Below, piece by piece: positions 5,380 to 43,873 of a stretch of 44,712 nucleotides of DNA; positions within the stretch are counted from its first letter, which is position 1; every line of letters starts with the position of its first letter. Where the stretch lies: sequence record PQ295795; one strand, 5' to 3'. Origin of the DNA: Escherichia phage vB_Eco_Lzu_P1. The position numbers and the translations under genes were made by a program. The notes below the pieces were generated by a model. That model did not search any database. It was not told the DNA's origin and saw only the letters and a program-made list of their open reading frames with translations.

Positions 5380-5709
5380 TTACTTCGAAGTTTTATTATT
5401 GCGTACCCAGGAGCGCACGGTGCTCTGATTAATTCCTGTCAACTCAGCGATCATTGCCCAGGATTTGCCCTCGGCGCGCAAACGGATAACCTGTTTTTTG
5501 TATTCTTCCATTTCGTCATTGTGCTTTTGCAGCTTGCTTGCTGCCGTGCCGTTGAGTAATTCCAGCTTCGCGGTAAGCTCCTTCTCAGCACGCGATAATC
5601 TGGACACTTCAAATAACAGAGTATCCACCGCATTTGTGTAATACCAGGATTTACCCGCTTCGCCGCGGATTGCATTAGATAACACTTCAATTGCTTCTTT
5701 GATATTCAT
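5380..5709 (-). CDS. Helix-turn-helix DNA-binding protein (putative transcription regulator)
   Basis: C-terminal GKSWAMIAELTGINQSTVRSWVRN is a classic HTH; first gene of the minus-strand block next to the divergent promoter region. Confidence 0.55.
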   Translation of the reverse strand: MNIKEAIEVLSNAIRGEAGKSWYYTNAVDTLLFEVSRLSRAEKELTAKLELLNGTAASKLQKHNDEMEEYKKQVIRLRAEGKSWAMIAELTGINQSTVRSWVRNNKTSK

Positions 5710-5740
5710 AATTCAGTCTCCTGTTGGCTAATGACCAACG

Positions 5741-5769
5741 AAACTACACCCAAAACTGCACGGTGTCAA
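5741..5769 (-). promoter_or_regulatory. Sigma70-like promoter for the minus-strand block
   Basis: Minus strand: TTGACA - 17 nt - TAGTTT, about 30 nt upstream of the RBS of the 5709 gene. Confidence 0.45.
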
Positions 5770-5914: not shown

Positions 5915-6110
5915 TCACCTCGTCGACAGGATGCAGGAAGCAAACTGGAGAGGGGCAACGCAGGGGCCGGATCGAAGTGTCAGGATTCCCAACCGTGATT
6001 ATATAACCCGGTCCACTACCCGAAAGGGAGAACGCGCAACCGGGCGCTATGTTAAGGCCACCGACGAAGTTAATGGTCGACACCTAAACTTAACCAATCG
6101 GAGATATACC

Positions 6111-6650
6111 ATGTTTGAGCAAATCGTAAACCTGATCACTCGCGGCGTAGTAGCCCTGGAAATCATCGCTAAGCATTATGAAACCGTTGGCGCTGCCGTA
6201 GACCCAAAAGCAAACGGCACCGCTAAGAAAGGCAAGGCCAAGCCGGAGAACGAAGTCGAAGACGACGATCAGGACGAAGTCGAAGATACGCCCAAAGCGA
6301 AAAAAGGCGCGGCAAAAGAAACCAAGTCTAAAGGTAAGGCCAAAAAAGAAGTCGTAGAGGATGACGACGAGGATGAAGCCGAAGACGAAAAACCGGCTAA
6401 AACCAAAAAAGCACCAGCGAAAGGCAAAGGTAAGAAAGATGCCGATCCGCTGGCAGAGATGCGCGACGAAATCAAACAGTATGCCGCGATTATCGCAGGC
6501 GGTGATGACGACGATGCGAACGACGAATTCGACGACCTGCTGGAATCGTTCGAGATCAAATCAATCGCTAAACTGGAAGACGACGACGTGGAAGACTTCC
6601 ACAAAGACCTGAAAGAAATCGTCGAAACTTATTTCGAACTGGAAGATTAA
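6111..6650 (+). CDS. Highly charged low-complexity protein (alternating acidic and lysine-rich blocks), first early gene
   Basis: ATG at 6111 with GGAGAT RBS; 179 aa with runs such as EDDDQDEVED, KAKKGAAKETKSKGKAKK, GGDDDDANDEFDD; ORF track 5883..6650 includes an upstream extension without RBS. Confidence 0.6.
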   Translation: MFEQIVNLITRGVVALEIIAKHYETVGAAVDPKANGTAKKGKAKPENEVEDDDQDEVEDTPKAKKGAAKETKSKGKAKKEVVEDDDEDEAEDEKPAKTKKAPAKGKGKKDADPLAEMRDEIKQYAAIIAGGDDDDANDEFDDLLESFEIKSIAKLEDDDVEDFHKDLKEIVETYFELED

Positions 6651-6656
6651 TATTAT

Positions 6657-6686
6657 CCGGCCCGCAGATTAGCGGGCCTCTTTTTA
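6657..6686 (+). terminator. Intrinsic terminator
   Basis: GGCCCGC-agatta-GCGGGCC followed by TCTTTTT. Confidence 0.6.
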
Positions 6687-6698
6687 GAGGACGAGACA

Positions 6699-6950
6699 AT
6701 GGCACGCTTCACGCTAATAGAGGCGGTGGATTCCCGCGACCAGCGCCCATATTATTGGCTATTCGAACGCATCGGCAGCTTTCAATCACGCGTTGCCGTA
6801 ATTGATAAACGCCGCACTACACCCGCGCAAATTAAGCGCACCACCTTTACCAATCCAGACTTTTATATTTGGGCTGACTCCAATCTGGAATATGTTCGCT
6901 TCGCCGTTGCATCCGAAGCAAAAACAATTGACCGCTGGGAGACAAAATAA
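6699..6950 (+). CDS. Hypothetical protein (83 aa)
   Basis: ORF track; GAGGA RBS. Confidence 0.5.
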   Translation: MARFTLIEAVDSRDQRPYYWLFERIGSFQSRVAVIDKRRTTPAQIKRTTFTNPDFYIWADSNLEYVRFAVASEAKTIDRWETK

Positions 6951-7139
6951 ATGGCTATATTTTTCGTTTTATTTCGCTGCCGTATCACTGGCGACGAGAT
7001 ACCAGAAATAATCAGGCATGAGAACTGGCTTTGCTGTTGGGGGAAAGCCTGCGACCTGGCTTTGACAATGAACGAAGACGCGAAGCGGGACAATGTTGAA
7101 CACGATTATTACATTGCTCAATTTTCAAGGGTGGAATAA
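6951..7139 (+). CDS. Hypothetical protein (62 aa)
   Basis: ORF track; start abuts previous stop, stop overlaps next start (TAATG). Confidence 0.4.
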   Translation: MAIFFVLFRCRITGDEIPEIIRHENWLCCWGKACDLALTMNEDAKRDNVEHDYYIAQFSRVE

Positions 7140-8569
7140 TGGCGATTAAACCAAAACGTAAAACGCAATCCGGTAGCAATACGGAACACTCATTACTCGG
7201 GCCATCCGGTGCTAAAAAATGGATGGGTTGCCCTGCCGCCCTGGTGGTGGAAAAAGATATCCCGAACGAATCCGGGCAGGCGGCGATTAACGGTACGAGT
7301 ATGCACACCGTATCTGAAGTTGTGCTAAACCGCATTATCGCCGGTGAAAAGCTGATAACCGCAAAGACGTATAAAGGATGCTACGTCGAGAACGAAGGCA
7401 AGGGACCAGTAAAGGCCCACCCGAAAGCACCGAAAGGCGGCGTACTGGTCAACGACGATATGGTGAAACAGTGCGACGCGTACATCGACCACTGGCGACC
7501 GCTCCTCGAAGTGGCGGAGTTTGTCCAGCTTGAGATGCGCGCCGATCTCACCCGCGTCCTCCACCATGGCGTCGAGATCGACGGTAACAGGGTTAAGACG
7601 TTCGGCACTGCCGATATGGTCATGATCATGAAGAAGACCGATGGCACGTACATGCTGATTGTTGGCGACCTGAAGACCGGGCGACATAAGGTCGAGGCGA
7701 AAGAAAACAAACAGCTTATGTTGTACGCGCTCGGCCTGCTGCGCAAGCTGCAAACCATGTACGACATTACGACCGTGCGCCTGGTCATCTTCCAGCCGTA
7801 TTGCGGCGGGGCGTCAGAGTGGGATATCTCAGTGGAAGCGCTGGAGATATTCGCGAAGTTTGCGTCCAAGCGTGCTATCGCCGCGCTCGATGCATACGCC
7901 CGTGGCAAGAAGGGACTGACCCGCGCCGACTTCCGACCGAGCGTTGATGCGTGCCAGTGGTGCAGATTTGCGGACCAGTGCAGCGTCCGGGCGAAGGCCG
8001 CAATCGACACGATGACGCCACCAACGGCAACCGACGAAGACCTTGGCGACGACGTGAGCGTGGCAACCGAGGAAGAGTGCGCCAACCAAGACCGCAATAT
8101 GACCCGCGAAGCCCGGAAGGCTGCCCGACGTGCTAAACGGGGCAAGAAGGAATCCACCCCAGGCGCTATGAGCGCGGCGGAACTGCGCAAGGCTTATGAA
8201 GGACTTGACGCAATGCGCCAGCACATCAAAGCTATCGAGTACGCGGTATTCAAGGCGGTCATGGCGGGCGATGGCGAATCGTTGGGCCTTAAGATGGTTG
8301 CCGGTAAGGAAGGGATCCGTAAGTGGGCAGACGAGAGCGAAGTGATTGAAATCTTCACGAAGGCCCGGATCAAGCGCGATGTGATGTACAAAGAAACATT
8401 GCTCAGCCCGACCGATGCCGAGAAGGTACTGAAGGACGAGAAGCCGAAAGTGTGGGCGAAGCTGTGTGCTAAAATCACACGCGCACCTGCAAAACCGGTG
8501 TTAGCACCAATCGACGACCCGCGCCCCGCGTGGTCTGAAGCTACTGACGAGGACTTAAGCAATGAATAA
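7139..8569 (+). CDS. PD-(D/E)xK-family nuclease with C-terminal cysteine cluster (Cas4/RecB-like phage exonuclease)
   Basis: Motifs GTADMV ... IVGDLKTG (D...D-x-K) and C-terminal CQWCRFADQC; paired with the downstream SSB-like gene. Confidence 0.55.
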   Translation: MAIKPKRKTQSGSNTEHSLLGPSGAKKWMGCPAALVVEKDIPNESGQAAINGTSMHTVSEVVLNRIIAGEKLITAKTYKGCYVENEGKGPVKAHPKAPKGGVLVNDDMVKQCDAYIDHWRPLLEVAEFVQLEMRADLTRVLHHGVEIDGNRVKTFGTADMVMIMKKTDGTYMLIVGDLKTGRHKVEAKENKQLMLYALGLLRKLQTMYDITTVRLVIFQPYCGGASEWDISVEALEIFAKFASKRAIAALDAYARGKKGLTRADFRPSVDACQWCRFADQCSVRAKAAIDTMTPPTATDEDLGDDVSVATEEECANQDRNMTREARKAARRAKRGKKESTPGAMSAAELRKAYEGLDAMRQHIKAIEYAVFKAVMAGDGESLGLKMVAGKEGIRKWADESEVIEIFTKARIKRDVMYKETLLSPTDAEKVLKDEKPKVWAKLCAKITRAPAKPVLAPIDDPRPAWSEATDEDLSNE

Positions 8570-8804
8570 AGTATTCGCATTCTTATTGATGATTATGCTC
8601 GGTGCGCTGGGCTTTATCCTGCATTGCGTGCAAGGCGTGTTAATGGTAGCCTGGATGATTCGCCATCCGACCCGCTGGCTGGACGATGGCTATAGTGACG
8701 CTGCCGTAGACTGGGTGGGGAAGAACATCGACCGACCGCCGTTAAGCTGGATTGAGAACGCCACCAACTACGTGACCAGAAATCTTTTTAATAAAAGTGC
8801 TTGA
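8562..8804 (+). CDS. Small membrane protein (80 aa)
   Basis: ORF track; hydrophobic N-terminus VFAFLLMIMLGALGFILHCVQGVLMVAWMI; start overlaps previous stop. Confidence 0.45.
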   Translation: MNKVFAFLLMIMLGALGFILHCVQGVLMVAWMIRHPTRWLDDGYSDAAVDWVGKNIDRPPLSWIENATNYVTRNLFNKSA

Positions 8805-8829
8805 CCGCGCAGGCGCAACCAAGTAAATT
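8801..8829 (+). promoter_or_regulatory. Sigma70-like promoter
   Basis: TTGACC - 17 nt - TAAATT upstream of the SSB-like gene; spacer carries GCAACCAAG twice. Confidence 0.45.
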
Positions 8830-8894
8830 GGCAACCAAGCCGAACGGGGTGGCTCACAATAACCCCGATACATGTGAAAATGAGGAATTGGAAA

Positions 8895-9674
8895 ATGGCT
8901 AAAGTCAACCTGAAAAATGTGCGCGTATGTTTCCTGAATATTTGGGAACGTGATACCCCTAAACAGGCTGGGCAAAAACCGGCATACCGCGCCGTGATTC
9001 TTCTGGATAAAGAAGATCCGCAGGTGGACAAAGTGGAAGCGGCAGCGCGCGCAGCGCTCACCGTCAAGCTGAAATCCGAGAAGAATGCCGATAAGTGGAT
9101 GGACCGCCACTACGCCCAGGATTCTAAGGAATGCGCAGTCCGCGACGGTGACGAGCGCGACGAAGTAACCGAAGAATTCGAAGGCATGTTGTACATCAAC
9201 GCCAAATCGTTCAAGCAGCCAAACATTCAAACGTCACTCGGCGAGAAGCAGACTGAACAAGGTCTGACCGTAGAAGGCGACGAGATCGAAGGCCAGGAGA
9301 TCTACTCCGGTTGTTATTGCAACGTGTCACTGGATATTTGGGCGTGGAACAATACCAACGGCAAGGGACTCGGTGCTGGGCTTTTAGGTCTGCGCTTCCG
9401 TGATGACGGCGAAGCCTTCGGCGGTGGCGGATCTTCTTGCTCCGACGAAGACCTGGGCGACGATGACGAAAGCCCGCGCAAGTCCAAAAAGTCAAAACGT
9501 CGTGATGACGATGACGAAGATGACAAGCCGCGCAAGTCCAAAAAGTCCAAGCGCCGCGATGACGATGACGACGACGAAGATGAAAAACCTCGTAAACGTC
9601 GTAAGCCACGCGACGATGAAGATGAGGACGAAGACGACGAAGACGAAGCACCACGTAAACGTCGCCGTCGTTAA
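8895..9674 (+). CDS. Putative single-stranded DNA-binding protein with repetitive acidic/basic C-terminal tail
   Basis: ATG at 8895 with GAGGA RBS; N-terminal MAKVNLKNVRVCFLNIWE pattern and acidic tail resemble phage gp2.5-type SSBs; location next to exonuclease and polymerase. Confidence 0.4.
   Translation: MAKVNLKNVRVCFLNIWERDTPKQAGQKPAYRAVILLDKEDPQVDKVEAAARAALTVKLKSEKNADKWMDRHYAQDSKECAVRDGDERDEVTEEFEGMLYINAKSFKQPNIQTSLGEKQTEQGLTVEGDEIEGQEIYSGCYCNVSLDIWAWNNTNGKGLGAGLLGLRFRDDGEAFGGGGSSCSDEDLGDDDESPRKSKKSKRRDDDDEDDKPRKSKKSKRRDDDDDDEDEKPRKRRKPRDDEDEDEDDEDEAPRKRRRR
9474..9660 (+). repeat. Imperfect tandem repeat (about 57-bp unit, 2-3 copies) inside the SSB-like CDS
   Basis: ccgcgcaagtccaaaaagtc...gatgacgatgac repeated, encoding PRKSKKSKRRDDDDEDDK twice, then a degenerate third copy. 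Confidence 0.75.
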
Positions 9675-9692
9675 GGGCAAAGCCCACTATTC

Positions 9693-9718
9693 AAGCCCGC
9701 TTAATGCGGGCTTTTTAA
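9693..9718 (+). terminator. Intrinsic terminator
   Basis: AAGCCCGC-ttaat-GCGGGCTT followed by TTTTAAT. Confidence 0.6.
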
Positions 9719-9732
9719 TAGGACAATGAAAA

Positions 9733-9903
9733 ATGCGCATTAAAGCCAGCGAAGTAAAAGTCGGAATGCGAGTATGGTCCAAGCTACTGGGGGAATATTT
9801 CACCGTTGCCGAGATTCGCAACAACGGCGAGGAGATAACACTTTCCGACGGTATCTTCTCCATGATCGGCAGCGCTGACGCCGTAGTGAGGATTAAGCAA
9901 TGA
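9733..9903 (+). CDS. Small protein (56 aa) translationally coupled to the DNA polymerase
   Basis: ATG at 9733, stop TGA overlaps polymerase ATG (ATGA); below the 60-aa track threshold; weak RBS. Confidence 0.35.
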   Translation: MRIKASEVKVGMRVWSKLLGEYFTVAEIRNNGEEITLSDGIFSMIGSADAVVRIKQ

Positions 9904-12191
9904 AAGACTTCGAACGCCTGTTTCTCGATACCGAGACATTTAGCGGGGTAGACCTGAAGAAAGTTGGCGCATACGCCTACGCAGAGCACCCAACCACCGA
10001 GATTATGATTTGCACCTACGCCATCGACGAGGGCCGCGTGCAGACATGGGATTGCACCGAGTCCCCCACAATGCCACGTGAACTGCGCAAGGCGCTCCGC
10101 CAGGTATCCCGCAAGAAAGCAAAAATCGTGATGGCTAACGGCCTCCTGTTTGACCGCCTGGTTATTCGCGAGAAGTGGGGCATTGACCTGCCAGTGTGCC
10201 AGATCGAAGACACCATGATTATGGCCTTCCGACACGCGCTGCCGGGTAGTCTCGACATGCAGTGCCAGGTGCTGGGCGTTGACGCAGAACACGCGAAGGA
10301 TAAGGCTGGCAAGGCGCTGATCAAACGATTCTGTAAGCCAACCCCTAAGACCTACAAAATCCGCCGCTACACCCGCGAGACTCACCCTGAAGAATGGGCT
10401 AAATTCCTGCGCTATGCCGCGCTGGATATCATCGCGATGAGGGAAGTCTATTGGCGCATACCGGACTGGGGTAATACGCCGAAGGAAGACGAAATCCTGC
10501 TTATTGACCAGTTGATTAACGACCGCGGCTTCTATGTGGACGTTGACCTGGCACGCGCTGCGATCAAAGCGGTACAGGCGCATAAGGAAGAATTAAAGGA
10601 AGAAGCCCGGGAGCGCTTCGGCGGTAAGCTAACCGGAAATGACTTCCTGCCAGCGCTGCGCGACCTCGCGCCTGCGTTCACAATCCACAACGCGCAGAAA
10701 TCCACGCTTAACGACCTGCTGGAAGATCCAGACTTCCCCGATGAAGGCAAAGTGCTTATCGAGATGCGCCTCGGAGCGTCATCAACGGCGTCGACTAAAT
10801 ACAATCCGCTCGTAAATGGTCTGTCTTCCGATGGTCGCCGCCGTGGGTGTCTTCAGTATGGTGGGGCAAAGCGCACGCTACGCTGGGCCGGTAAAGGCTT
10901 CCAGCCGCAAAACCTGGCGCGAGGCGAGTATAGCGACGACCACGAGGGGAAGATTAAGCGCCGTGAGGGCGAGAGCGATATATCCTTTTGGGTGCGGTCG
11001 CACATGCTCACCAACGGCATCAACTCCCTGTTACGCGGGACCGCACACTGGGCGTATGACATATCGAAGCTAACGGCCTCGACCGTTCGCGGGTGCATTA
11101 TTCCGGCGAAGGGCAAGAAGTTTGTCGTCGCGGACTACTCCAACGTGGAAGGGCGCGGCCTTGCCTGGATCGCTGGCGAGAAAACCGCGCTAATGGTGTT
11201 TAGGGCCGGTCGCGATATTTATTGTGAGACTGCCGGTAAGATGTTCGGCCTCGATCCGGAATACATTAAAGCCAACCGCAAAGACTTACGCCAGATTGGT
11301 AAGGCGTGTGAGTTGGGACTTGGCTATGGCGGCGGCGTGGCTGCGTTCTTGCAGTTCGCTAAAAACCTGGGCCTCGACCTTTATGCGATGGCTGACGTGA
11401 TGAAGGGCACATTCCCCGATCACATTTGGGCGGCGGCGAAACGTGGTTATGAGTATGCCCGCATTAACGAAGCGAAGCGCCCGCCGAAGCCGGGCAAGAA
11501 GGACGAGCGCCCGACTTACATACTGCCGAAAAACGTATGGCTTACGTGTGATGCGATTAAACGCATGTGGCGCGAGGCTCACCCGAAGACGGTAGCATTT
11601 TGGGCCGAGCTTGAGGACGCGGTGCTCTGCGCGATCCGCAATCCGGGCAAAGCGTACTGGGCTGGCGCGAACGTTCGCCCGGATGGTAAGAAAGCGCTCA
11701 AGATAGTCCGCACGAAGGCGAAGCATGACCCAACCTTCGACGAGGAGCGCGACGACCCGAACGCCGCTGGGTGGTGGTTGAAAATTGAGTTGCCGTCTGG
11801 GCGTATTATGAGTTACCCAGGCATTGCGCTGTCAGTGACGACCGAGATCGACGAAGACACCGGCAAGAAACGCACCAGCACCCGCATTAAATATCAGGGT
11901 GAGAATCAGACGACGCGCCAGTGGGGATTCCAGTACACCTACGGCGGCAAACTCACGGAAAACATCGTGCAGGCGCTGTGCCGCGATATCCTCGCATGGT
12001 CCATGCCGGGCGTTGAAGCTGCGGGGTATGAAATCGTCCTGTCAGTGCACGATGAACTGATAACCGAAGTGCCGGATACCGACGACTACACAACCGAGGA
12101 GTTGTGCGCGCTGATGTGCGACCTGCCGGTTTGGGCGAAAGGCTTCCCGCTTGCCGCGGAAGGCGACATTATGTACAGGTACAGAAAATGA
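9900..12191 (+). CDS. Family-A (Pol I-like) DNA polymerase with 3'-5' exonuclease domain
   Basis: 763 aa; Exo I motif LDTETF, motif A DYSNVEGR, motif B RQIGKACELGLGYGGG, motif C VHDEL. Confidence 0.9.
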   Translation: MKDFERLFLDTETFSGVDLKKVGAYAYAEHPTTEIMICTYAIDEGRVQTWDCTESPTMPRELRKALRQVSRKKAKIVMANGLLFDRLVIREKWGIDLPVCQIEDTMIMAFRHALPGSLDMQCQVLGVDAEHAKDKAGKALIKRFCKPTPKTYKIRRYTRETHPEEWAKFLRYAALDIIAMREVYWRIPDWGNTPKEDEILLIDQLINDRGFYVDVDLARAAIKAVQAHKEELKEEARERFGGKLTGNDFLPALRDLAPAFTIHNAQKSTLNDLLEDPDFPDEGKVLIEMRLGASSTASTKYNPLVNGLSSDGRRRGCLQYGGAKRTLRWAGKGFQPQNLARGEYSDDHEGKIKRREGESDISFWVRSHMLTNGINSLLRGTAHWAYDISKLTASTVRGCIIPAKGKKFVVADYSNVEGRGLAWIAGEKTALMVFRAGRDIYCETAGKMFGLDPEYIKANRKDLRQIGKACELGLGYGGGVAAFLQFAKNLGLDLYAMADVMKGTFPDHIWAAAKRGYEYARINEAKRPPKPGKKDERPTYILPKNVWLTCDAIKRMWREAHPKTVAFWAELEDAVLCAIRNPGKAYWAGANVRPDGKKALKIVRTKAKHDPTFDEERDDPNAAGWWLKIELPSGRIMSYPGIALSVTTEIDEDTGKKRTSTRIKYQGENQTTRQWGFQYTYGGKLTENIVQALCRDILAWSMPGVEAAGYEIVLSVHDELITEVPDTDDYTTEELCALMCDLPVWAKGFPLAAEGDIMYRYRK

Positions 12192-12469
12192 TGACACCAG
12201 AAGGCAAGATTCAAAGTCACCTTATGAAGCTGGTGAAAGCCGTCGGCGGATTCTGCCGAAAACTGGCATGGGAGGGGCGCGCAGGAGCGCCCGACCTCAT
12301 AATCATCATCAACGGCAAGATAGTTTTCGTCGAAGTGAAGCGCCCAGGCGGTAAACCTAAGCCGCACCAGGTACGAGAACATGAGCGAATGGCCTGCCGC
12401 GGTGCGGACGTTCGCGTCATCGACAACATAGCCGACTGTGATTTATTGGTTGCTGAATTGGTCGCGTAG
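12188..12469 (+). CDS. VRR-NUC domain nuclease
   Basis: ATG overlaps polymerase stop (ATGA); GAPDLIIIINGKIVFVEVKRPGGKPKPHQ matches the VRR-NUC D...E-V-K core. Confidence 0.6.
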   Translation: MMTPEGKIQSHLMKLVKAVGGFCRKLAWEGRAGAPDLIIIINGKIVFVEVKRPGGKPKPHQVREHERMACRGADVRVIDNIADCDLLVAELVA

Positions 12470-12509
12470 CAGTATAGTGGGCCGGTTAGCCCTATCGAGG
12501 ATTTTAGAA

Positions 12510-12683
12510 ATGGTTGAAGAAAAACGTTGTAGTAATTGCGGTTGTGTTAAACCGCTATCCCAGTTCCATAAATACACCGGTAAGACTGCGCGAAGCCCGG
12601 ACGGGTATCGGGCAGAGTGCAAATCGTGCCGCAATAAAAAAGAGCGCGAACGGCAGCGCCGCTACCGCGCAGAGCAAAAATAA
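12510..12683 (+). CDS. Small zinc-ribbon protein (C-x2-C ... C-x2-C), possible transcription factor
   Basis: ATG at 12510 with GAGGA RBS; CSNCGC ... CKSC pattern, basic C-terminus. Confidence 0.4.
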   Translation: MVEEKRCSNCGCVKPLSQFHKYTGKTARSPDGYRAECKSCRNKKERERQRRYRAEQK

Positions 12684-12689
12684 TTAATA

Positions 12690-12715
12690 CGGCGGGCTTG
12701 TCCCGCCATTTTTGG
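12690..12715 (+). terminator. Intrinsic terminator (stem contains the TTGTCCCGCC motif)
   Basis: GGCGGG-cttgt-CCCGCC followed by ATTTTTGG. Confidence 0.5.
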
Positions 12716-12726
12716 GAGACATGACG

Positions 12727-12945
12727 ATGAAAGAACATTATCGACTCACCACACTTGGCGAATGCAAACCAGGCGATCGCGTATGGTTTATCGCGGGCAT
12801 GAATTACCCGCTGCCGTTAACGGTGTGCTGGCAAAAATTTAAGAGCTTCCAGGCGACGGGTGTACACATCGGACACGCCACCAACTACGACGCCACAAAA
12901 AGGAACTGGAACAGTGAGACAGAAGTCTGGAAAAAGGCGGAATAA
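12727..12945 (+). CDS. Hypothetical protein (72 aa)
   Basis: ATG at 12727, GGGAGA RBS 7 nt upstream; track ORF 12712..12945 starts at TTG. Confidence 0.45.
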   Translation: MKEHYRLTTLGECKPGDRVWFIAGMNYPLPLTVCWQKFKSFQATGVHIGHATNYDATKRNWNSETEVWKKAE

Positions 12946-12949
12946 AGAT

Positions 12950-14374
12950 ATGGCACGATTCCGACGCCGCGAATATCAGAAGTTGATAACCGCGTTCATC
13001 CTCAAGCATAAGCGATGCAATATATGGGCGACAATGGGGTCGGGTAAAACTGGCGCGACCATGTGGGCACTGAATAAAATGTTCCAGACCGGCATCCTGT
13101 CCCTCCTGGAGGACCGCGTACTGGTGCTGGCCCCTCTGCGCGTTGCATCCGGCACATGGCCCCCGGAACAGGAAAAATGGCGCTTCCCCGCCTTGCTGGT
13201 AGTAGATGGCACTGGGTCCGAGAAGGACCGCATCGCTGCGCTTGAGAGCGACGCTAACGTGGTTTGTATTAACTATGATGTGGTTGAGTGGCTCGTCGAG
13301 TATTGCGGCGACGAGTGGCCCTTCACGGTAGTTGTTGCCGATGAATCCACTAAGCTGAAAGGCTATAGAAGCAAGCAGGGGAGTAAGCGCGCCCGCGCAC
13401 TGGCGGCGATTGCCCATAAGCACGTCAAGCGCTGGATTAACCTGACCGGCACACCCGCACCAAACGGGCTGAAAGACCTATGGGGTCAGACGTGGTTTGT
13501 CGATGGTGGCGAACGCCTCGGCAGTAGCTATAAGGCATTTACGGATCGCTGGTTTATTAGCAAGCCTGTTAAGCCTGGCAGCTTCACTATGCAGCACGCC
13601 CCGCTTAAGAACTCCGAGAAAGAAATCCAACAACGCCTGTCCGACGTGTCGCTAACAGTTGACGCGGCTGAATACTTCGGGTGTGACAAGCCGATCTATA
13701 CGCCGGTTGTTGTGGACCTGCCGAAGAAAGCCCGTAAGATTTATGACCAGTTCGAAGCGGAGCTATTTGCCGAACTGGAAAGCGGAACTGTGGAGGCCGC
13801 AAACGCCGCGTCGAAGACTATTAAGTGCCTTCAGCTTGCTTCGGGTGCCGTATATAAAGTCGACGAAGACGGCGAGCGCACCGACGAATGGGTGAAAATT
13901 CACGACGCTAAACTGGACGCGCTGGAAAGTATCGTGGAGGAGTTGAACGGCGCACCGTTGCTCGTCGCGTACCAGTACAAGCATGACCTGGCACGTCTTA
14001 AGAAGAAATTCCCGCACGGCGTAGCGATGGGTAAGGGGAAGCAAGGCAATAAGGATATGGAAGCGTGGAACAGGGGCGAGATCCCCATCATGTTCGCACA
14101 CCCGGCATCGGCGGGTCACGGCCTTAACTTGCAGGATGGCGGACACCACCTTGCCATCTTCTCCGACACCTGGAACTATGAGCATTTTTCGCAGATTGTG
14201 GAGCGTATCGGGCCGGTTCGCCAGATGCAAGCCGGACACCCTCGTCCGGTATTCGTCTACATTATCCAGGCGCGTGGCACACTGGATGAACTGGTCGCGG
14301 AGCGTCGCGACAGTAAGCGCGATATTCAGGACGACCTGATGGAATACATGAAAGCTAAAAAGGCGCGCAAATGA
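12950..14374 (+). CDS. SNF2-like superfamily-2 helicase
   Basis: Walker A MGSGKTGA, motif II VVADESTK, motif III LTGTPAPN; track ORF 12860..14374 has an N-terminal extension without RBS. Confidence 0.7.
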   Translation: MARFRRREYQKLITAFILKHKRCNIWATMGSGKTGATMWALNKMFQTGILSLLEDRVLVLAPLRVASGTWPPEQEKWRFPALLVVDGTGSEKDRIAALESDANVVCINYDVVEWLVEYCGDEWPFTVVVADESTKLKGYRSKQGSKRARALAAIAHKHVKRWINLTGTPAPNGLKDLWGQTWFVDGGERLGSSYKAFTDRWFISKPVKPGSFTMQHAPLKNSEKEIQQRLSDVSLTVDAAEYFGCDKPIYTPVVVDLPKKARKIYDQFEAELFAELESGTVEAANAASKTIKCLQLASGAVYKVDEDGERTDEWVKIHDAKLDALESIVEELNGAPLLVAYQYKHDLARLKKKFPHGVAMGKGKQGNKDMEAWNRGEIPIMFAHPASAGHGLNLQDGGHHLAIFSDTWNYEHFSQIVERIGPVRQMQAGHPRPVFVYIIQARGTLDELVAERRDSKRDIQDDLMEYMKAKKARK

Positions 14375-15081
14375 CTATTGCTAAAATGACAATCTGGTCA
14401 TTATTTGACGGCAGCGGCTTGATGATTGAGCGTGCTGCCGAGATGGGGAATAAGTGTTATTGCTTCAACTACTCCGAAGCCGATCACGGGTCGTACCTGG
14501 ACTACCGGATTTATGGGCGCGGTATCCGATATCGTAATGAGTTTATCGATCTGGACTTCGTGGACCGCGCGATGAATGGTGATTTTGGTACGCCGGATAT
14601 CATCTACGCATTCCCGCCGTGTACTGATCTGGCGGTGAGCGGTGCGCCAGCTTTCCCGCGTAAGCGTGCAAAAGACCCAGCCTTTCAGATTAAGGCGGTG
14701 CGCACCGCGAAGATCGCCGCTTACCTGGGTGATTTCTTCGAAGTGCCATATATGATTGAGAATCCGCGCAGCGTGCTATCAACTCAATGGCGTAAGCCGG
14801 ACCACTCGTTTGACCCGTGGGAGTATGGCGGATATCTGCCGGAGGATGACGTGCACCCGTTATTCCCGGAATACATCAACGCCCGCGATTCATATCCGAA
14901 GTTGACCTGCTTATGGACCGGCAACGGCTTCCGTATGCCAGAGAAGAAACCTGTTTTCGTTGAAAAAGGGTACTCGAAGCAGTATAGTCGCCTCGGAGGC
15001 AAATCAGCCCGCACAAAATTAATCCGGTCGCTCACCCCGCGCGGCTTCGCGATAGCGGTTAACGAGGAAAATTTAAAATGA
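14371..15081 (+). CDS. DNA C5-cytosine methyltransferase-like protein (short, small target-recognition region)
   Basis: Motif I-like LFDGSG, motif IV-like FPPC, motif VI-like ENP, motif X-like RSLTPRGF; ATGA overlap with helicase. Confidence 0.45.
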   Translation: MTIAKMTIWSLFDGSGLMIERAAEMGNKCYCFNYSEADHGSYLDYRIYGRGIRYRNEFIDLDFVDRAMNGDFGTPDIIYAFPPCTDLAVSGAPAFPRKRAKDPAFQIKAVRTAKIAAYLGDFFEVPYMIENPRSVLSTQWRKPDHSFDPWEYGGYLPEDDVHPLFPEYINARDSYPKLTCLWTGNGFRMPEKKPVFVEKGYSKQYSRLGGKSARTKLIRSLTPRGFAIAVNEENLK

Positions 15082-15401
15082 ATACTGCATTCGACGCCAT
15101 CGACTTTTCAGTGGCAATGACCAATCAGCTTTTTTCCTACGACAGCAAGACCGGCGTCATTCGCCTGAAGTCAACCGGCTGCAAGATTGGCAACCTCAAT
15201 ACTGCCGATGGCGGTACTCGTATCGAATGCAACGGCAAGACGCTGTCTGGCGCACGCGTGGCGTGGATTATCGCGACCGGCAATACAATCCCCCCAGGCT
15301 TTGCCGTTGTGTGCCGTCAGCGCACGCCAGGCCATTACGGCAACCGGATCAGCAATCTTTATTTGGTGGACGTTGCGCGCGACCCAAATTTTTATGCGTA
15401 A
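15078..15401 (+). CDS. HNH endonuclease (HNH_3-type homing endonuclease-like)
   Basis: GHYGNRISNLYLV matches the H-x-x-N-x3-NL-x-LV HNH core; free-standing between two methyltransferase-like genes. Confidence 0.5.
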   Translation: MNTAFDAIDFSVAMTNQLFSYDSKTGVIRLKSTGCKIGNLNTADGGTRIECNGKTLSGARVAWIIATGNTIPPGFAVVCRQRTPGHYGNRISNLYLVDVARDPNFYA

Positions 15402-15406
15402 ATTGG

Positions 15407-15435
15407 TTGCATAATCATATTGGTTGCATTATATT
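15407..15435 (+). promoter_or_regulatory. Sigma70-like promoter formed by two direct ATTGGTTGCA motif copies
   Basis: TTGCAT - 17 nt - TATATT; motif copies at 15402-15411 and 15417-15428. Confidence 0.55.
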
Positions 15436-15482
15436 GAGGGTGTCCGGTTTGGACGCCCTTTTTAATACCTGGAGACAACACG

Positions 15483-15941
15483 ATGAAAATTTTACAAGAA
15501 GAGAAAAATTACTGGGCCGCGCAATGCCTCGAAGCCCGCGAGCAAACGGCCAACGCGAAACAATCGGCCGAAATCTTCCGGTCAGGTTATGAAACGGAAG
15601 AAAAGCGTCGCATGGAGTTAGAGGAGCGCTTCGAACTGCTATTCGAATTGATGGGGATTATGCAACGCACCGGATACACCACCAGCGTTGCACTAAACCG
15701 CATCACTGCCGATAGTTTGCGTGAGCACTGTAAACGTGCGGAGGAGTACGTGCGACCGAAGGGCCGCCAGTCTAAGATTGACCGGAAAGACCTGGTGCTG
15801 GTTGCGTGGCGAGGGAACGGGTCTTACTACTCCGACTGCCGACCACTCGGCACCGAGGAATCAAAGCGCGTGCAACGCGTTCTAAACAGTAATAAGAAAA
15901 TTGCCCTGTACGCGATAGATCCAGATCATGCAGAAGAGTGA
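15483..15941 (+). CDS. Hypothetical protein (152 aa)
   Basis: ORF track; GGAGA RBS. Confidence 0.5.
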   Translation: MKILQEEKNYWAAQCLEAREQTANAKQSAEIFRSGYETEEKRRMELEERFELLFELMGIMQRTGYTTSVALNRITADSLREHCKRAEEYVRPKGRQSKIDRKDLVLVAWRGNGSYYSDCRPLGTEESKRVQRVLNSNKKIALYAIDPDHAEE

Positions 15942-16413
15942 GCAAAAAGATAGCTGGCGCACGCCGCCAGCTTTATTTAAACCGCTGCGCCGGAAGTACC
16001 GATTCCGTTATGACATGGCGGCGAGCGACACCAACCACCTGCTACCGCGTTACTTCACGGCAGAGCACAGCGCGCTTGAGGTGGACTGGTCAGAGTTGAA
16101 AGGGTGGAAGTGGTGCAATCCGCCGTATTCCGATCCGCTGCCGTGGGTCGAGTGCGCAGCGCACGGACGCAGGACTGTCATGCTGCTGAATCAGGACACG
16201 TCGACGAAGTGGGCGAGGCTGGCCCGGAAGACTGCAAACCTGATAATTCTTCTGGACTGGCGGATCCGATTCATCCATGCTGTGACCGGTGAAGTCGGGC
16301 CGAGCAATAACAAGTGCCAGCAATTGATAATCTTTGACGAAGCGCCGCCCATCGGCAGCGCACAAATTGAAATAATGAGCGAGAGTGAGTTACATGAATA
16401 TCTTAATCGTTGA
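15928..16413 (+). CDS. Phage-type DNA N6-adenine methyltransferase
   Basis: WCNPPYS (NPPY catalytic motif) and N-terminal WRTPP; size and layout typical of small phage Dam-like enzymes. Confidence 0.7.
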   Translation: MQKSEQKDSWRTPPALFKPLRRKYRFRYDMAASDTNHLLPRYFTAEHSALEVDWSELKGWKWCNPPYSDPLPWVECAAHGRRTVMLLNQDTSTKWARLARKTANLIILLDWRIRFIHAVTGEVGPSNNKCQQLIIFDEAPPIGSAQIEIMSESELHEYLNR

Positions 16414-16618
16414 CCGCGACCCCGCGGTCGTAGACCAAATGCAAAAAGACTATAACATCGACCCACGCCGCGATCGTGTGGTGCGCGCGTCTCGCCCCGA
16501 ATACATCCTGGGCCTTGACCTCACCGGTTGGCTTGTCATGACCCGACGTTGTCATTTCGTGTGCAACTCTTACACCGCGCGTAGCGCCCGAGCCACCCTT
16601 ATTGAGAGCCTAAAATGA
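16394..16618 (+). CDS. Hypothetical protein (74 aa)
   Basis: ORF track 16385..16618; second ATG chosen. Confidence 0.4.
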   Translation: MNILIVDRDPAVVDQMQKDYNIDPRRDRVVRASRPEYILGLDLTGWLVMTRRCHFVCNSYTARSARATLIESLK

Positions 16619-17085
16619 AATTACTGATTTGTGATCTGGATGGCGTTATTAATGGTTCAAGTGATGCGCGTGCCGACCTGGTGCCGGGCATAAAAACTAA
16701 ATCCACCTTTTGGGCGAAGTGGCACAAGGCGCACGTCCGCGAAGACCTTAACATGGATATGCTGCCGTTATTGCGCATGTATAAAGAGCAAGGCTTCGAG
16801 ATCGCGTACCTGACAAACCGGCAGCGAGAATGTTGGGACACCACCGCCGAGCAATTGGAGGTCTTCCCGGTAGGCCGGTTATTCATGCGCCACATGCTGG
16901 ACGACACCCCGCCGCCAGAGTTTAAGGCGTGCGCCGTGTTCAAAATGGTCTGCTACGCGGACGTGTCTGAACTGGTCATCATTGAAGATTGCGAGAAGAA
17001 CATCGCGGCAATTCGTCGGGCGTGTGGTGATTTGGTCCCGAAAATTTACGCAATAAACGTTGCAAAATTCACTTGCAACCAATAG
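16615..17085 (+). CDS. HAD-superfamily phosphatase-like protein
   Basis: N-terminal LLICDLDGV (HAD motif I DxDG), downstream YLTNR (motif II). Confidence 0.5.
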   Translation: MKLLICDLDGVINGSSDARADLVPGIKTKSTFWAKWHKAHVREDLNMDMLPLLRMYKEQGFEIAYLTNRQRECWDTTAEQLEVFPVGRLFMRHMLDDTPPPEFKACAVFKMVCYADVSELVIIEDCEKNIAAIRRACGDLVPKIYAINVAKFTCNQ

Positions 17086-17101
17086 TTGGTTGCAGTATAT
17101 T
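17073..17101 (+). promoter_or_regulatory. Sigma70-like promoter overlapping a perfect palindrome TGCAACCAA-tag-TTGGTTGCA
   Basis: TTGCAA - 17 nt - TATATT; palindrome at 17074-17094. Confidence 0.55.
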
Positions 17102-17151
17102 AAACACATCGGGAGGCAACGCCGCCTCCCACTAAAAAAAAGGAAAACATC

Positions 17152-17376
17152 ATGAAACAGTTTACTAAGACCGACCTTGATCAGATTACCTTCACCAATA
17201 CCATCAACGAAATTACCATGAAAATTAACACCGCTCGCACACCGGTTAAGAGCATCGCAGAACACGCCGAACTGTGTGCCACTCAGATTGCCAACGAGCA
17301 ATTCAGCAATATCCTGGCGAACATCGCCAAGTGCAAGACCCGCAAAGGCATGAACGCCATCATCGCAACCATCTAA
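17152..17376 (+). CDS. Hypothetical protein (74 aa)
   Basis: ORF track; GGA-rich RBS. Confidence 0.45.
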   Translation: MKQFTKTDLDQITFTNTINEITMKINTARTPVKSIAEHAELCATQIANEQFSNILANIAKCKTRKGMNAIIATI

Positions 17377-17416
17377 CCTTCCGGCCCCGAAAGGGGCCAC
17401 CCTTGAGGATCGCAGA

Positions 17417-17971
17417 ATGAAAGCATACGAATACTGCAAAAATGCCGCCACCACTATGGAACAGCGCGGGAAAGAAAACGGCTATGACAACGCGAAAGAA
17501 GAACGCAGCGCTAAACAAATCGCTGCCGTGTTTAACGCGCTTACCGGTCGCGACCTGTCCGAGCAAGAAGCCTGGACCTTCCTGATCTGCCTGAAGCTGG
17601 TGCGCCAGCACCGTAAGCACCAGGAAGATAACATCGTGGACCTGGTGGCGTATGCCGCCCTGCTGGGCGAGTCTTACATGACCGTACATGACGAGATTCA
17701 GATCGATACAACGGCAGCACAATTCGACAGCCTCAAAGGCCTGTCCGTGCGTCTCGACGGTGAAATTAATGCGTATAACAGAGCAATTCGCGTTGCAGAG
17801 GACACGGTAGCCTCGTTCGGCAAGACTGTTAAGGCCCGCGATTTTGGCATCGCAGATCAGGACGTCCAGCCTATGGTCGTGCTCACTGGCGAGGACGGAT
17901 CTAAAATCCTCATGACGCCGGAAGATTTCCGTAACATGGAAAAAACACTGGTGACTGGCGCACTTAAATAA
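17417..17971 (+). CDS. Hypothetical protein (184 aa)
   Basis: ORF track; AGGA RBS. Confidence 0.5.
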   Translation: MKAYEYCKNAATTMEQRGKENGYDNAKEERSAKQIAAVFNALTGRDLSEQEAWTFLICLKLVRQHRKHQEDNIVDLVAYAALLGESYMTVHDEIQIDTTAAQFDSLKGLSVRLDGEINAYNRAIRVAEDTVASFGKTVKARDFGIADQDVQPMVVLTGEDGSKILMTPEDFRNMEKTLVTGALK

Positions 17972-18013
17972 TTCTAATAGCGGGCTTCGGCCCGCATCAA
18001 TGAGGACTACACG

Positions 18014-18589
18014 ATGTACGGCGAATACGAAATATCTGGTAAACAATTCCACCTGGCGGCAATGATCGCAAGCATAGAGTTTGACCAGTGGCGCTTAAAG
18101 TCTGACGCGTGCAAGCAAAGCCGTCTTGTCGGTGTGCTGGGCGAGATGTTTGCGGGCATGTACCTGGAAGGGCAGGCAGGCGGTCGAAGTTGTATCCCGC
18201 AAGGCTTACTAATGCGTACCGGCCTGTTTAGCGCTAATACTATCGACCGCGGCGATATTATCATGGTTGGCAAGCGCAAGGTTAAGTCCGGTCCTGACTT
18301 CCGCGAGCATACGATCGATGCCGTATGGACATACGAGGTTAAAGCCACCAGCGGCATCCGTCGCGGACTGGTAGAGGCACGTTGCGCTCGCGAGTATCTC
18401 ACTCGTCGGGTTGCCGGTGTTATTCTGGTGGGGGTGTCGTTCGGGCAGCATAGCGCCATCGGCGTGATTGAGGATATTGCGGAGCCATACGTGATAGTGA
18501 ACGATTGGCCCCTGGTGGAAGTGGAAGGAAAGGAATATTACGAAAGCCCGCTGGTTCGGCGCAAAATGGACTGGGAAAACTCAAACTAA
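18014..18589 (+). CDS. Hypothetical protein (191 aa), possible PD-(D/E)xK-like nuclease
   Basis: ORF track; AGGA RBS; segment DAVWTYEVKATSG resembles a D...E-x-K core, weak. Confidence 0.4.
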   Translation: MYGEYEISGKQFHLAAMIASIEFDQWRLKSDACKQSRLVGVLGEMFAGMYLEGQAGGRSCIPQGLLMRTGLFSANTIDRGDIIMVGKRKVKSGPDFREHTIDAVWTYEVKATSGIRRGLVEARCAREYLTRRVAGVILVGVSFGQHSAIGVIEDIAEPYVIVNDWPLVEVEGKEYYESPLVRRKMDWENSN

Positions 18590-18620
18590 AAAAGGGGCCG
18601 TATGGCCCCTTTTCTCATTT
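18588..18620. terminator. Bidirectional intrinsic terminator between convergent blocks
   Basis: AAAAAA-GGGGCC-gtat-GGCCCC-TTTTCTCATTT; A-tract on one side, T-tract on the other. Confidence 0.65.
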
Positions 18621-30661: not shown

Positions 30662-30975
30662 CAGTCTCAGACGAGGGGGGCCATTGACCCCCGTCTAGTC
30701 TGAAAGACTGGGCTTTGTCCCGCCTGTCCCGATCGGCTAAAACCCACGGCAGCACTGACGGGGACAGGGGTGCTGTCCCGCTTTGTCCCGCCTCATTCTG
30801 TCCCGCTTTCTGTCCCGTTTGTTTTATGCAGAAAAACCGCATAGCTATTCACTTTTAAGGGGCGGGACAGATCGGGACATCACCCCGTCCCGCTTTTAGT
30901 TTATGCAATGAAAGTGAGTATATATGCTGTTTAATGGTGGCGGGACAAAACGGGACGTCCCGCCTGTCCCGCTTC
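30662..30975. repeat. Non-coding hairpin plus GTCCCGC iteron element, copy B, with extra iteron cluster
   Basis: 30662-30731 identical to 2842-2911; about nine direct and several inverted (G)TCCCGC units; inserted between the GT chaperone stop and the tape-measure start. Confidence 0.85.
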
Positions 30976-36534: not shown

Positions 36535-36563
36535 TTGCATTGCAGACGTTGGTCGCATTATAT
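36535..36563 (+). promoter_or_regulatory. Sigma70-like promoter for the plus-strand 254-aa gene
   Basis: TTGCAT - 17 nt - TTATAT followed by TATATTGGTTGCACACCAA, the same 19-mer as upstream of the 2626 gene. Confidence 0.5.
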
Positions 36564-36593
36564 TGGTTGCACACCAACAACGAGGACACAAAA

Positions 36594-37358
36594 ATGAGAC
36601 TGACAAAAGGCATTAAAAATCAGATCCTAGCTAACATCCTTCGCGACCACGAAATCGCAACCGAAGCCAAACAAATCATGATGGACTCTCGCGACCTGGC
36701 GTACGCGATCACGCTGGACTGTATGCCGGACGGCATTCGCACGTTCGCAGCGCTCCGCGAGCATATCAAGGCAATCCGCGATGACCAGTCGCAGATGTAC
36801 GGCGTCAGCGTATACACCAACAAGGCGACGTATAGTTATAACACCGACCGCCCGAAGGGTATCGGCCGCGTTTACGACGCCACCTTTGAAATCAACGCAG
36901 GCGGCAATGTTCGCACCTTGTCCTTGAGCGGTGACGGTCGCCAATACCGCGTACATCGCGGATACTGGGAAGAGAAATATATGAATAAGCTCTCGCCTGA
37001 TCTCGGCGATATCGTTCCGGGGTTCGAGACAGTTATGCTCGCGTCAGTGTGCGAAGTGGACGAGGAAGGGAAAGCGCTGCCGATATATCTCCCACGCGGT
37101 CGCGTAGACTACCCGGCGGACCATGACTTCTGTAAGCGCCTGGACCGCAACGACAAGGCACGTCGCGAGTTGCGTGCGAAGTATGACGCGTTCAAACTCA
37201 CCGTTACCGGTGTGCTGGACCTGCACAATACTGACAAGAAGCTGATTAAGGCATGGCCTGAAGTTGAGCAATTCATACCATACCAGGACAAGCCAAAATC
37301 CACGGCGGTGGCGCTGGATGTGAAAACTCTCAACGAGATTTGCGGTATTCCGCGCTAA
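36594..37358 (+). CDS. Hypothetical 254-aa protein in an autonomous promoter-gene-terminator cassette inside the head gene block
   Basis: ATG at 36594 with GAGGA RBS; own promoter and terminator; opposite orientation to flanking structural genes. Confidence 0.6.
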   Translation: MRLTKGIKNQILANILRDHEIATEAKQIMMDSRDLAYAITLDCMPDGIRTFAALREHIKAIRDDQSQMYGVSVYTNKATYSYNTDRPKGIGRVYDATFEINAGGNVRTLSLSGDGRQYRVHRGYWEEKYMNKLSPDLGDIVPGFETVMLASVCEVDEEGKALPIYLPRGRVDYPADHDFCKRLDRNDKARRELRAKYDAFKLTVTGVLDLHNTDKKLIKAWPEVEQFIPYQDKPKSTAVALDVKTLNEICGIPR

Positions 37359-43796: not shown

Positions 43797-43830
43797 ATTG
43801 GTTGCAGTATGGCGTCTATGTTGGTTGCAA
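43797..43830 (+). promoter_or_regulatory. Pair of ATTGGTTGCA motifs (regulatory site; promoter orientation ambiguous)
   Basis: Motif at 43797-43806 and 43821-43830; plus-strand TTGATT - 17 nt - TATGTT, minus-strand TTGACT - 18 nt - CATACT. Confidence 0.35.
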
Positions 43831-43848
43831 GTCAAGCAATAAAAAGCC

Positions 43849-43873
43849 CGGTATTATCCGGGCTTGATTGTTT
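43849..43873 (-). terminator. Intrinsic terminator ending the lysis operon
   Basis: Minus strand AAGCCCGG-ataata-CCGGGCTT followed by TTTATTG. Confidence 0.65.

Follow-up and report, generated by a model that had tools for sequence, protein, structure and literature searches.

At the end of a phosphatase-like gene in the genome of Escherichia phage vB_Eco_Lzu_P1 (PQ295795; the whole 44,712 nt are referred to here as the window) lies a palindrome, TGCAACCAATAGTTGGTTGCA (17074–17094), which reads TGCAACCAA-TAG-TTGGTTGCA and consists, exactly as a first-pass annotation had described it, of perfect 9-nt arms around a 3-nt loop, a pattern expected 0.01 times in shuffles. The left arm also encodes the last three codons of the gene (Cys-Asn-Gln, C-N-Q) and the loop supplies its stop codon, so the earlier placement of the palindrome within the 3' end of a HAD phosphatase gene holds for these two elements and fails for the right arm, which is intergenic. 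The Pfam match behind the HAD assignment (Acid_phosphat_B/HAD IIIB, E 3.6e-5) is sub-threshold, at 23.8 bits against a cut-off of 27, and its orthologs in related phage records are labelled either phosphatase or nucleotidase. A second inverted repeat, GTTGCAA-aattcac-TTGCAAC, has TTGCAA in common with the left arm and is largely kept in relatives, where the constraint on it is ambiguous because it lies within coding sequence.

The two arms, henceforth the left and right boxes, occupy positions −34 to −26 and −22 to −14 of a sigma-70-type promoter, TTGCAA-17-TATATT, called by a promoter scan on the plus strand upstream of the gene at 17152, in agreement with the overlap with a −35 element and spacer reported before. 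When sigma-70 promoters are taken as hexamers near TTGACA and TATAAT set 16–18 bp apart, this arrangement has 9 of 12 consensus matches and is the top-scoring one in the region, with a predicted start at about 17108. The orthologous promoter of relatives reads TTGCAA-18-TATAGT or TATCTT, and all 26 aligned genomes (25 relatives and the window) keep (T/C)TGCAA, a 17–18 bp spacer and TAT..T, followed by a stem-loop, a Shine-Dalgarno sequence and a start codon. In the window, the 96-nt region with the 5'-UTR stem-loop has a z-score of −3.96, and the stem is kept in 18 distinct relatives, 5 of which show a single compensatory replacement of G-C by A-U; a Shine-Dalgarno-like AAGGA and an ATG at 17152 follow it. 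On the strength of the conserved −35 and −10 elements and of the stem-loop with its compensatory pair, the promoter looks real. A sigma-54 promoter was dropped for a misfit of the GG/GC register, judged by eye, and an extended −10 was dropped for want of a TG at −15/−14.

Behind this promoter lies a variable accessory slot. The 74-aa ORF that occupies it in the window has no Pfam or PHROG match, and DNA homology to about 155 relatives ends at 17157, the DNA of the ORF being unmatched there. In Pandora71 and McMelon the slot is filled by an ORF that opens with the identical four residues, MKQF, and most phages have a DUF6378 gene directly behind the promoter (its homolog in the window is at 17417). 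Three different accessory-gene arrangements occur in this slot among the phages. Because the slot is variable, control of the promoter may decide when swapped-in accessory genes are expressed.

Table 1. Coordinates of the features discussed in the text (positions in the 44,712-nt window; box-bearing regions are given by the positions of their boxes).
Feature	Position	Strand	Description
Phosphatase ORF	16615–17085		Ends at the TAG of the palindrome
Second inverted repeat	17059–17079		GTTGCAA-aattcac-TTGCAAC, in phosphatase coding sequence
Sigma-70-type promoter	17073–17101	+	−35 TTGCAA 17073–17078, 17-bp spacer, −10 TATATT 17096–17101
Left box	17074–17082	+	TGCAACCAA; covers −35 hexamer positions 2–6 and the first 4 nt of the spacer
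Loop	17083–17085	+	TAG; stop codon of the phosphatase ORF
Right box	17086–17094	−	TTGGTTGCA on the plus strand; spacer positions 8–16, 1 nt before the −10; non-coding
5'-UTR stem-loop	17111–17130	+	GGGAGGC-aacgcc-GCCTCCC; about 3 nt past the predicted start; no T-run after it
74-aa ORF	17152–17376	+	Variable accessory gene behind the promoter
Box-bearing promoter regions	1940; 2647/2678; 5898; 8814/8830; 12446/12458; 15403/15420; 17074/17086; 20456; 36549/36563; 43798/43821		
Two further box sites	2770; 3049		In a repeat-rich gap
Typical direct pair, 17 bp apart	15403–15428	−	Promoter of gene 15483; plus strand TTGGTTGCAt-N7-TTGGTTGCA-t-TATATT
Dyads TTGGT-N5-ACCAA	2641–2655; 36563–36577		Right after a TATATT −10
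Candidate regulator gene, 109 aa	5383–5709	−	Variable N-terminus, long helix 21–79, C-terminal HTH 84–108
Palindrome GTTGGctaatgACCAAC	5723–5739		Just downstream of the −10 of the 109-aa gene promoter; TTGGT/ACCAA pentamers as in the boxes
Promoter of the 109-aa gene	5741–5769	−	TTGACA-17-TAGTTT
380-aa metallophosphatase	42495–43634		N-terminal HTH matches sub-threshold

The genome belongs to a Dhillonvirus (HK578-like E. coli siphophage), a genus of common E. coli phages with about 155 genomes in the collection searched, which feature in phage-collection, phage-therapy and anti-phage-defence studies. The plus strand from about 6100 to 18600 carries genes for replication and nucleotide metabolism, and most of what remains is a single long stretch of the minus strand devoted to lysis, packaging and structure, with 7.3% of the window non-coding. 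Gene order agrees with that of Salmonella phage Kenya-K19, Sodalis phage SO-1 and phage JL1, and a 3-kb piece around the palindrome matched 158 phage records at 80–95% identity, nearly all of them Dhillonvirus. The literature on these phages, SO-1 and HK578 included, yielded no published account of the motif or of Dhillonvirus promoters and their mapping, a literature search for Dhillonvirus transcript data found none, and, as regards promoters and the motif, the annotation in the SO-1 GenBank record is limited to two large repeat regions; the transcription programme of the Dhillonviruses appears to be so far undescribed.

The boxes at the palindrome are instances of a motif that the first-pass annotation rightly called recurrent. 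The window contains 18 copies of the core, GCAACCAA, a number reached by none of 100 shuffles and to be compared with an expectation of 1.86, and TGCAACCAA has 12 exact occurrences. In non-coding DNA, where 14 of the 18 copies of the core lie, no other 8-mer is as frequent; the usual form of the core is T-GCAACCAA-T. Within the 9-mer the first T is variable, and the most conserved part is ACCAA, not TGCAA; a methyltransferase target (TGCA) was dropped as an explanation because of that variable T. The sites, including the variant GCGACCAA, cluster in about ten promoter regions (Table 1), and in each of them a box lies at the −35, in the spacer or at +1 of the best sigma-70-like promoter that reads in the direction of the downstream gene. 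A scan of the whole window gave 10 distinct promoter-like hits in non-coding DNA with the orientation of the downstream gene; 7 of them have at least one box at these positions, against boxes on 1 of the 14 hits within coding sequence, and at five promoters a box, in either orientation, ends 1–2 nt before the −10. The positions of the boxes are kept in SO-1, JL1 and Kenya-K19, and in four syntenic metagenome contigs of greater divergence GCAACCAA again ranks first or nearly first among the words. A single 8–9 bp box lying on most promoter regions provides a ready-made promoter map, and it also points to a candidate master regulator.

Boxes are usually paired at promoters, so that the occurrence of one inverted pair is unsurprising in itself, and the palindrome is indeed, as had been stated, the sole exact inverted pair of the motif, a uniqueness that refers to the window. 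Across relatives, an inverted pair is the majority form at this locus, mostly as 9-4-9. Among the 25 aligned relatives, 20 have the 9-4-9 arrangement with loop tagg or ccta and an 18-bp promoter spacer, and at least 109 phage-collection records, counted as those sharing a 28-nt word, have it as well; this record count includes the form of phage Sponge, the one relative whose 9-4-9 has the left-arm variant cGCAACCAA. Kenya-K19 has an inverted 9-3-9 with one mismatch, and three relatives (L014, Pandora71 and McMelon), together with 10 records, have a direct repeat, TGCAACCAA-taa-TGCAACCAA. The perfect inverted 9-3-9 of the window is found in none of the 25 relatives and in no other record of the phage collection or of IMG/VR. 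The loop of relatives is mostly tagg; it is ccta in L013 and L015, whose ORF continues through it, and the direct-repeat genomes have taa. The left box is present in 26 of the 26 aligned genomes, the Sponge variant included, and the right box is conserved throughout the alignment apart from one substitution in K19, with variable non-coding bases next to it. In the three direct-repeat genomes of the alignment (L014, L018 and L019) the right box is flipped to TGCAACCAA, still 1 nt from the −10.

These comparisons bear directly on the possibility that function resides in the perfect dyad as such, to which a dimeric HTH repressor would bind symmetrically, the classic operator geometry proposed by the first-pass annotation. 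Besides the perfection of the repeat in the window and the prevalence of inverted pairs at the locus, such a reading would draw on the long helix predicted for the candidate protein described below, which would suit dimerisation. Against it, the half-site spacing is 3 or 4 bp depending on the relative, the right copy is flipped in the direct-repeat genomes, and the perfect form is confined to this genome. Across nine genomes every remaining pair of boxes is a direct repeat, at start-to-start distances of 9, 12–14, 16–17, 23, 31, 35 or 37 bp, many motif sites are single boxes, and elsewhere the dyads with the same pentamers run the other way round, as TTGGT-N5-ACCAA. Compared with a symmetric, lambda-type dimeric operator, the site has the overlap with the core promoter, but neither a conserved dyad with fixed half-site spacing nor counterparts of the same geometry at other motif sites. 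Symmetric recognition is on these grounds very unlikely, and the operator geometry previously assigned to the site is not upheld. What is conserved is a pair of independent boxes at fixed promoter positions rather than a palindromic geometry, and the perfect symmetry is lineage-specific, an accident of two boxes standing head to head in one genome.

The palindrome could also be conceived as an RNA hairpin in read-through phosphatase mRNA that terminates transcription, stabilises the 3' end or marks a site of processing, since it folds as a 9-bp stem and spans the stop codon. On the plus strand, however, the stem is followed by GTATATTAAAC and not by a U-tract, and the only strand on which an intrinsic terminator is called is the minus strand, which has no gene end there. 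Furthermore, the hairpin is abolished in the direct-repeat genomes, in which both boxes persist, and the same 9-mer occurs elsewhere singly and in both orientations. The mixed orientation of boxes within single transcription units and the loss of hairpin potential in the direct-repeat genomes argue for recognition on DNA and not on RNA, and make the hairpin explanation extremely improbable.

The reading put forward here, to which we assign about an even chance of being correct, is that the palindrome is composed of two adjacent Dhillonvirus regulatory boxes, read independently by a protein, most likely encoded by the phage, that represses the promoter. Since the box marks most promoter regions of the genus, the palindrome is probably a regulator-binding site and not a special symmetric operator. 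In this model, both boxes would be occupied by a sequence-specific DNA-binding protein, the left one covering most of the −35 and the right one filling the spacer to within 1 nt of the −10, and the bound protein would occlude the host RNA polymerase. With the polymerase blocked, the downstream accessory gene or genes would be turned down once the regulator had accumulated. As the same boxes, mostly in direct pairs, lie on most other promoter regions, 17074–17094 would be one node of a genome-wide circuit, and mutations in the boxes may offer engineering handles to de-repress or silence accessory genes.

Steric repression seems the simplest reading of boxes that lie at the −35, in the spacer or at +1, are free in orientation and spacing, and accompany adequate hexamers. 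The box promoters have 4–5 of 6 matches per hexamer and spacers of 17–18 bp, and repression is favoured over activation because these promoters look self-sufficient. The repressor model has to contend with the fact that repressing nearly all promoters, late ones too, would call for further logic, which is not apparent from the sequence. An alternative is that the boxes are activator or promoter-specificity elements, at which a phage protein on GCAACCAA recruits or re-targets the host RNA polymerase, for instance by replacing −35 recognition as T4 MotA or lambda CII do. Four promoters (R2, R5, R6 and R8b) have TTGGTTGCA at the same constant place, about −39 to −31, where the box provides a weak −35 hexamer that reads TTGCAt or TTGCtg. 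Two promoter classes are visible, one with TTGAC(T/C/G) and a box in the spacer and one in which the box itself supplies TTGCA(A/T). The 109-aa candidate protein, moreover, matches Sigma70_r4_2 above threshold. A variant of this idea is that the protein might repress consensus −35 promoters and activate those of the TTGCA type, as in an early-to-middle switch. The wide variation in box orientation and in distance to the −10 (at the −35, in the spacer, abutting the −10 or at +1) speaks against activation, as do the flippable right box at 17086–17094, the decent hexamers that the promoters have of their own, and the typical association of spacer-filling or +1-covering boxes with occlusion, so that we consider it fairly unlikely. 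The sign of regulation is beyond what sequence alone settles, and the fixed placement of TTGGTTGCA leaves room for an activating or dual role.

The best candidate for the binder, by association only, would be a 109-aa protein with a predicted coiled coil and HTH. Of the 24 products compared with Pfam, it and one other match a DNA-binding domain at all, and it alone does so above the curated threshold, with HTH_23 at 30.5 bits (cut-off 24.6), Sigma70_r4_2 at 28.8 (25.7) and HTH_28 at 28.5 (25). Its AlphaFold2 monomer model (pLDDT 83) gave, in a Foldseek search of the PDB, generic HTH matches at E > 0.3 (LuxR/GerE, NarL, LiaR, IstA and Sin; best E 0.34), and the sole PDB sequence match is a de novo designed repeat protein. 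Among homologs, residues 47–106, which include the HTH, are nearly invariant, and the N-terminal 45 residues vary freely. The family is tiny, confined to Dhillonvirus-type phages and co-distributed with the boxes, and its gene heads a leftward operon at a divergent, early and box-bearing promoter region. Just downstream of the −10 of that gene and ahead of its ATG lies GTTGGctaatgACCAAC, the counterpart of which in K19, SO-1, JL1, Pandora71 and McMelon is GTTGGTcattaACCAAC, the window differing by one mismatch. Sister-lineage contigs have, at the same spot, TTGGTcTGCAACCAA (L020), TTGGCcTGCAACCAA (L022) or a single GCAACCAA box (L021). This palindrome is possibly the autoregulatory site of the gene, and the evidence as a whole fits an autoregulated phage regulator, again by association.

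A more distant lineage qualifies this association. In contig L029, the HTH region of the ortholog (P0027) is divergent and its recognition helix reads VSTIKNWIYRK instead of VSTVRSWVRNAK, and GCAACCAA is nevertheless unchanged, with 12 copies, as the top non-coding word; no box was seen from the −10 to the ATG of the ortholog gene. Because the contig keeps GCAACCAA despite the divergent HTH, the motif does not co-vary with the protein, a check that neither supports nor refutes the link between protein and box. The connection with an HTH regulator drawn by the first-pass annotation is accordingly plausible as an association, one in which a changed recognition helix coexists with an unchanged motif, and that annotation as a whole is partly supported. 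Another phage protein or a host factor is a possible binder, since any of the small phage proteins that show no domain, which are the majority, could serve. The other protein with HTH matches, a 380-aa metallophosphatase, was set aside, its N-terminal HTH matches being sub-threshold; it is unlikely to be the binder because its gene is not called in the lysozyme-terminase interval of the box-bearing contigs L020, L021 and L029.

Reading by a host (E. coli) protein would account for a motif that is identical across lineages with a diverged HTH ortholog and diverged iteron words, as expected of a conserved host reader, and the boxes partially resemble half-sites of CytR (TTGCA) and PdhR (ATTGGT/ACCAAT). 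CytR sites are TTGCA-centred octamers with flanking CRP sites, and PdhR binds ATTGGT-N3-ACCAAT. The dyads found in the phage, by comparison, are TTGGT-N5-ACCAA or ACCAA-N3/4-TTGGT; PdhR-type N3 dyads are absent, there being no left half-site at N3, and no known host consensus, as generally described, fits a motif in which ACCAA and not TGCAA is the most conserved part. A single host operator on most promoters of a phage would also be unusual. In a genome-contig collection of 596 Gb the palindrome had 24 scattered matches, by estimate about the chance level, with no enterobacterial chromosomal counterpart, and three of these matches that were inspected, one of them from Serratia, contain only 2–3 boxes each. 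A scan of viral contigs for any direct box pair within 31 nt was uninformative because it was swamped by chance matches and tandem repeats. A host reader is, on this evidence, decidedly unlikely.

The most far-reaching extension of the model of two independently read boxes is that one small protein, combining a coiled coil with a sigma-region-4-like HTH and reading GCAACCAA, may run most of the transcription in a lytic siphophage lacking its own polymerase. This is a speculative and, in our view, unlikely proposition. If it were true, consensus −35 early promoters would be shut off where boxes lie in the spacer or at +1, the same protein would be the −35 reader or recruiter at TTGGTTGCA-type promoters, and a single-factor early-to-middle/late switch would be conserved in Dhillonvirus and its sister lineages.

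Several known systems share traits with this arrangement. The predicted long helix of the candidate running into a small HTH recalls the C-terminal E-helix and HTH of serine recombinases such as Sin and gamma-delta resolvase, a resemblance that would explain the "resolvase/transposase" labels in database records; the candidate, however, is without the catalytic domain and matches them only weakly (Sin 2r0q, rmsd 7.4 over 109 columns), and there is no evidence of recombination sites. The MotA boxes of T4 likewise mark a whole class of host-polymerase promoters with a phage-specific box, but they have one orientation and one position (about −30) and need AsiA, whereas the orientation and distance of the phage box vary between promoters and, among relatives, even at the 17073–17101 promoter. 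Lambda CII and P22 C1 similarly combine a small phage HTH protein with TTGC direct repeats (TTGC-N6-TTGC) that straddle or replace the −35. CII repeats keep a fixed 10-bp register and are activator sites only; the boxes are 9–37 bp apart from start to start, conserve ACCAA, and lie also in the spacer and at +1, and no pair is in the 10-bp register of the commonly cited CII consensus.

The operators of lambda CI/Cro (OR/OL) and of P22 Mnt/Arc have in common with the boxes that they are short, phage-specific sites on the −35, spacer and +1 of sigma-70 promoters, present in several copies per promoter, with the regulator gene beside divergent promoters and, likely, autoregulated. They are fixed-length pseudo-dyads bound by dimers, whereas the putative site described here is an asymmetric 8–9-mer, single or mostly in direct pairs, with variable spacing and spread over about ten promoter regions, in a genus described as lytic. 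The site would seem to work like a phage operator on its promoter, yet it departs from the lambda type in dyad and spacing. In the behaviour of the boxes, the closest parallel is with the heptamers of NarL/GerE regulators, which are also short, asymmetric boxes placed around promoters in several orientations and spacings. The candidate differs from these regulators in having no receiver domain, no significant structural match (best E 0.34) and an unrelated motif. The parallel is a functional analogy only, and the Foldseek and Pfam matches of the candidate HTH, weak as they are, point to this fold class as well (LuxR/GerE, NarL, LiaR).

Homologs of the HTH protein, the candidate binder of the GCAACCAA box (5383-5709, minus strand; family members P0001-P0027), are almost invariant over their C-terminal 60 residues and hypervariable over their N-terminal 45. 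This split in conservation suggests that the DNA target is conserved, and that the other end of the protein, which would bind a partner or act in sensing, evolves fast. The promoter of the HTH gene itself carries a palindrome, which is possibly an autoregulatory operator. Five relatives present this palindrome in a perfect form (GTTGGTcattaACCAAC), and in the sister lineages a GCAACCAA box stands in its place.

Features identified in the Dhillonvirus genome
Feature	Position	Orientation or context	Detail
GCGGGAC(A) word clusters	2897-2992 and 30717-30966	mixed orientation	~7 and ~10 copies, respectively
TTGGT-N5-ACCAA dyads	2641-2655 and 36563-36577	full box inside each	two, 15 bp
Palindrome in HTH gene promoter	5723-5739	directly downstream of the -10 (TTGACA-17-TAGTTT, minus strand)	GTTGGctaatgACCAAC
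74-aa ORF	17152-17376	downstream of the 17074-17094 palindrome promoter	
Nmad5 (nucleotide-modification-associated) gene	36594-37358	reverse orientation within structural block	
Short hydrophobic ORF	43775-43695	minus strand	~26 codons (MARSDIWVLAIWTTAAFIGMVICELI)

The TTGGT-N5-ACCAA dyads, two in the window against 0.07 expected, have a polarity opposite to that of the 17074-17094 palindrome. Each is immediately preceded by a TATATT -10 element and followed by a Shine-Dalgarno sequence and an ATG, in a module of the form TATATTGGTTGCACACCAA.

The slot downstream of the 17074-17094 palindrome promoter looks like a hot spot for accessory genes. Searches of Pfam and PHROG returned no match for the 74-aa product, and its DNA had none among ~155 Dhillonvirus records. 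An ORF with the same first four residues (MKQF) occupies the slot in Pandora71 and McMelon, two relatives with direct-repeat boxes at the palindrome site, and most phages have no ORF there.

The GCGGGAC(A) clusters occupy the two largest non-coding gaps of the window and share a longer homologous segment. In the GenBank record of the Sodalis phage SO-1 their counterparts are annotated as 'repeat region A/B'. The clusters look like iterons and are perhaps part of an origin. The GCAACCAA box remains the same between lineages, but the repeat word changes: it is CGGCACC in the sister-lineage contigs L021 and L022 and GGCACCCC in L029. Hairpins of the form GGCCCC-loop-GGGGCC also recur between genes (17382-17397, 18583-18620, and elsewhere), and AAGGGGCC ranks among the top non-coding words of the window. 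The 18583-18620 hairpin lies between convergent genes and resembles a terminator that works in both directions; T-runs are absent from others, which may act as RNA stabilisers or processing sites.

The short hydrophobic ORF lies between a box-bearing promoter (43806-43835) and the gene for a 380-aa metallophosphatase, with a good terminator ahead of it at 43848-43868. The Nmad5 gene has a box-bearing promoter of its own. In other Dhillonviruses, phages have escaped the Tmn defence system through mutation of nmad5, which has been proposed as the trigger of Tmn (PMC11846954).
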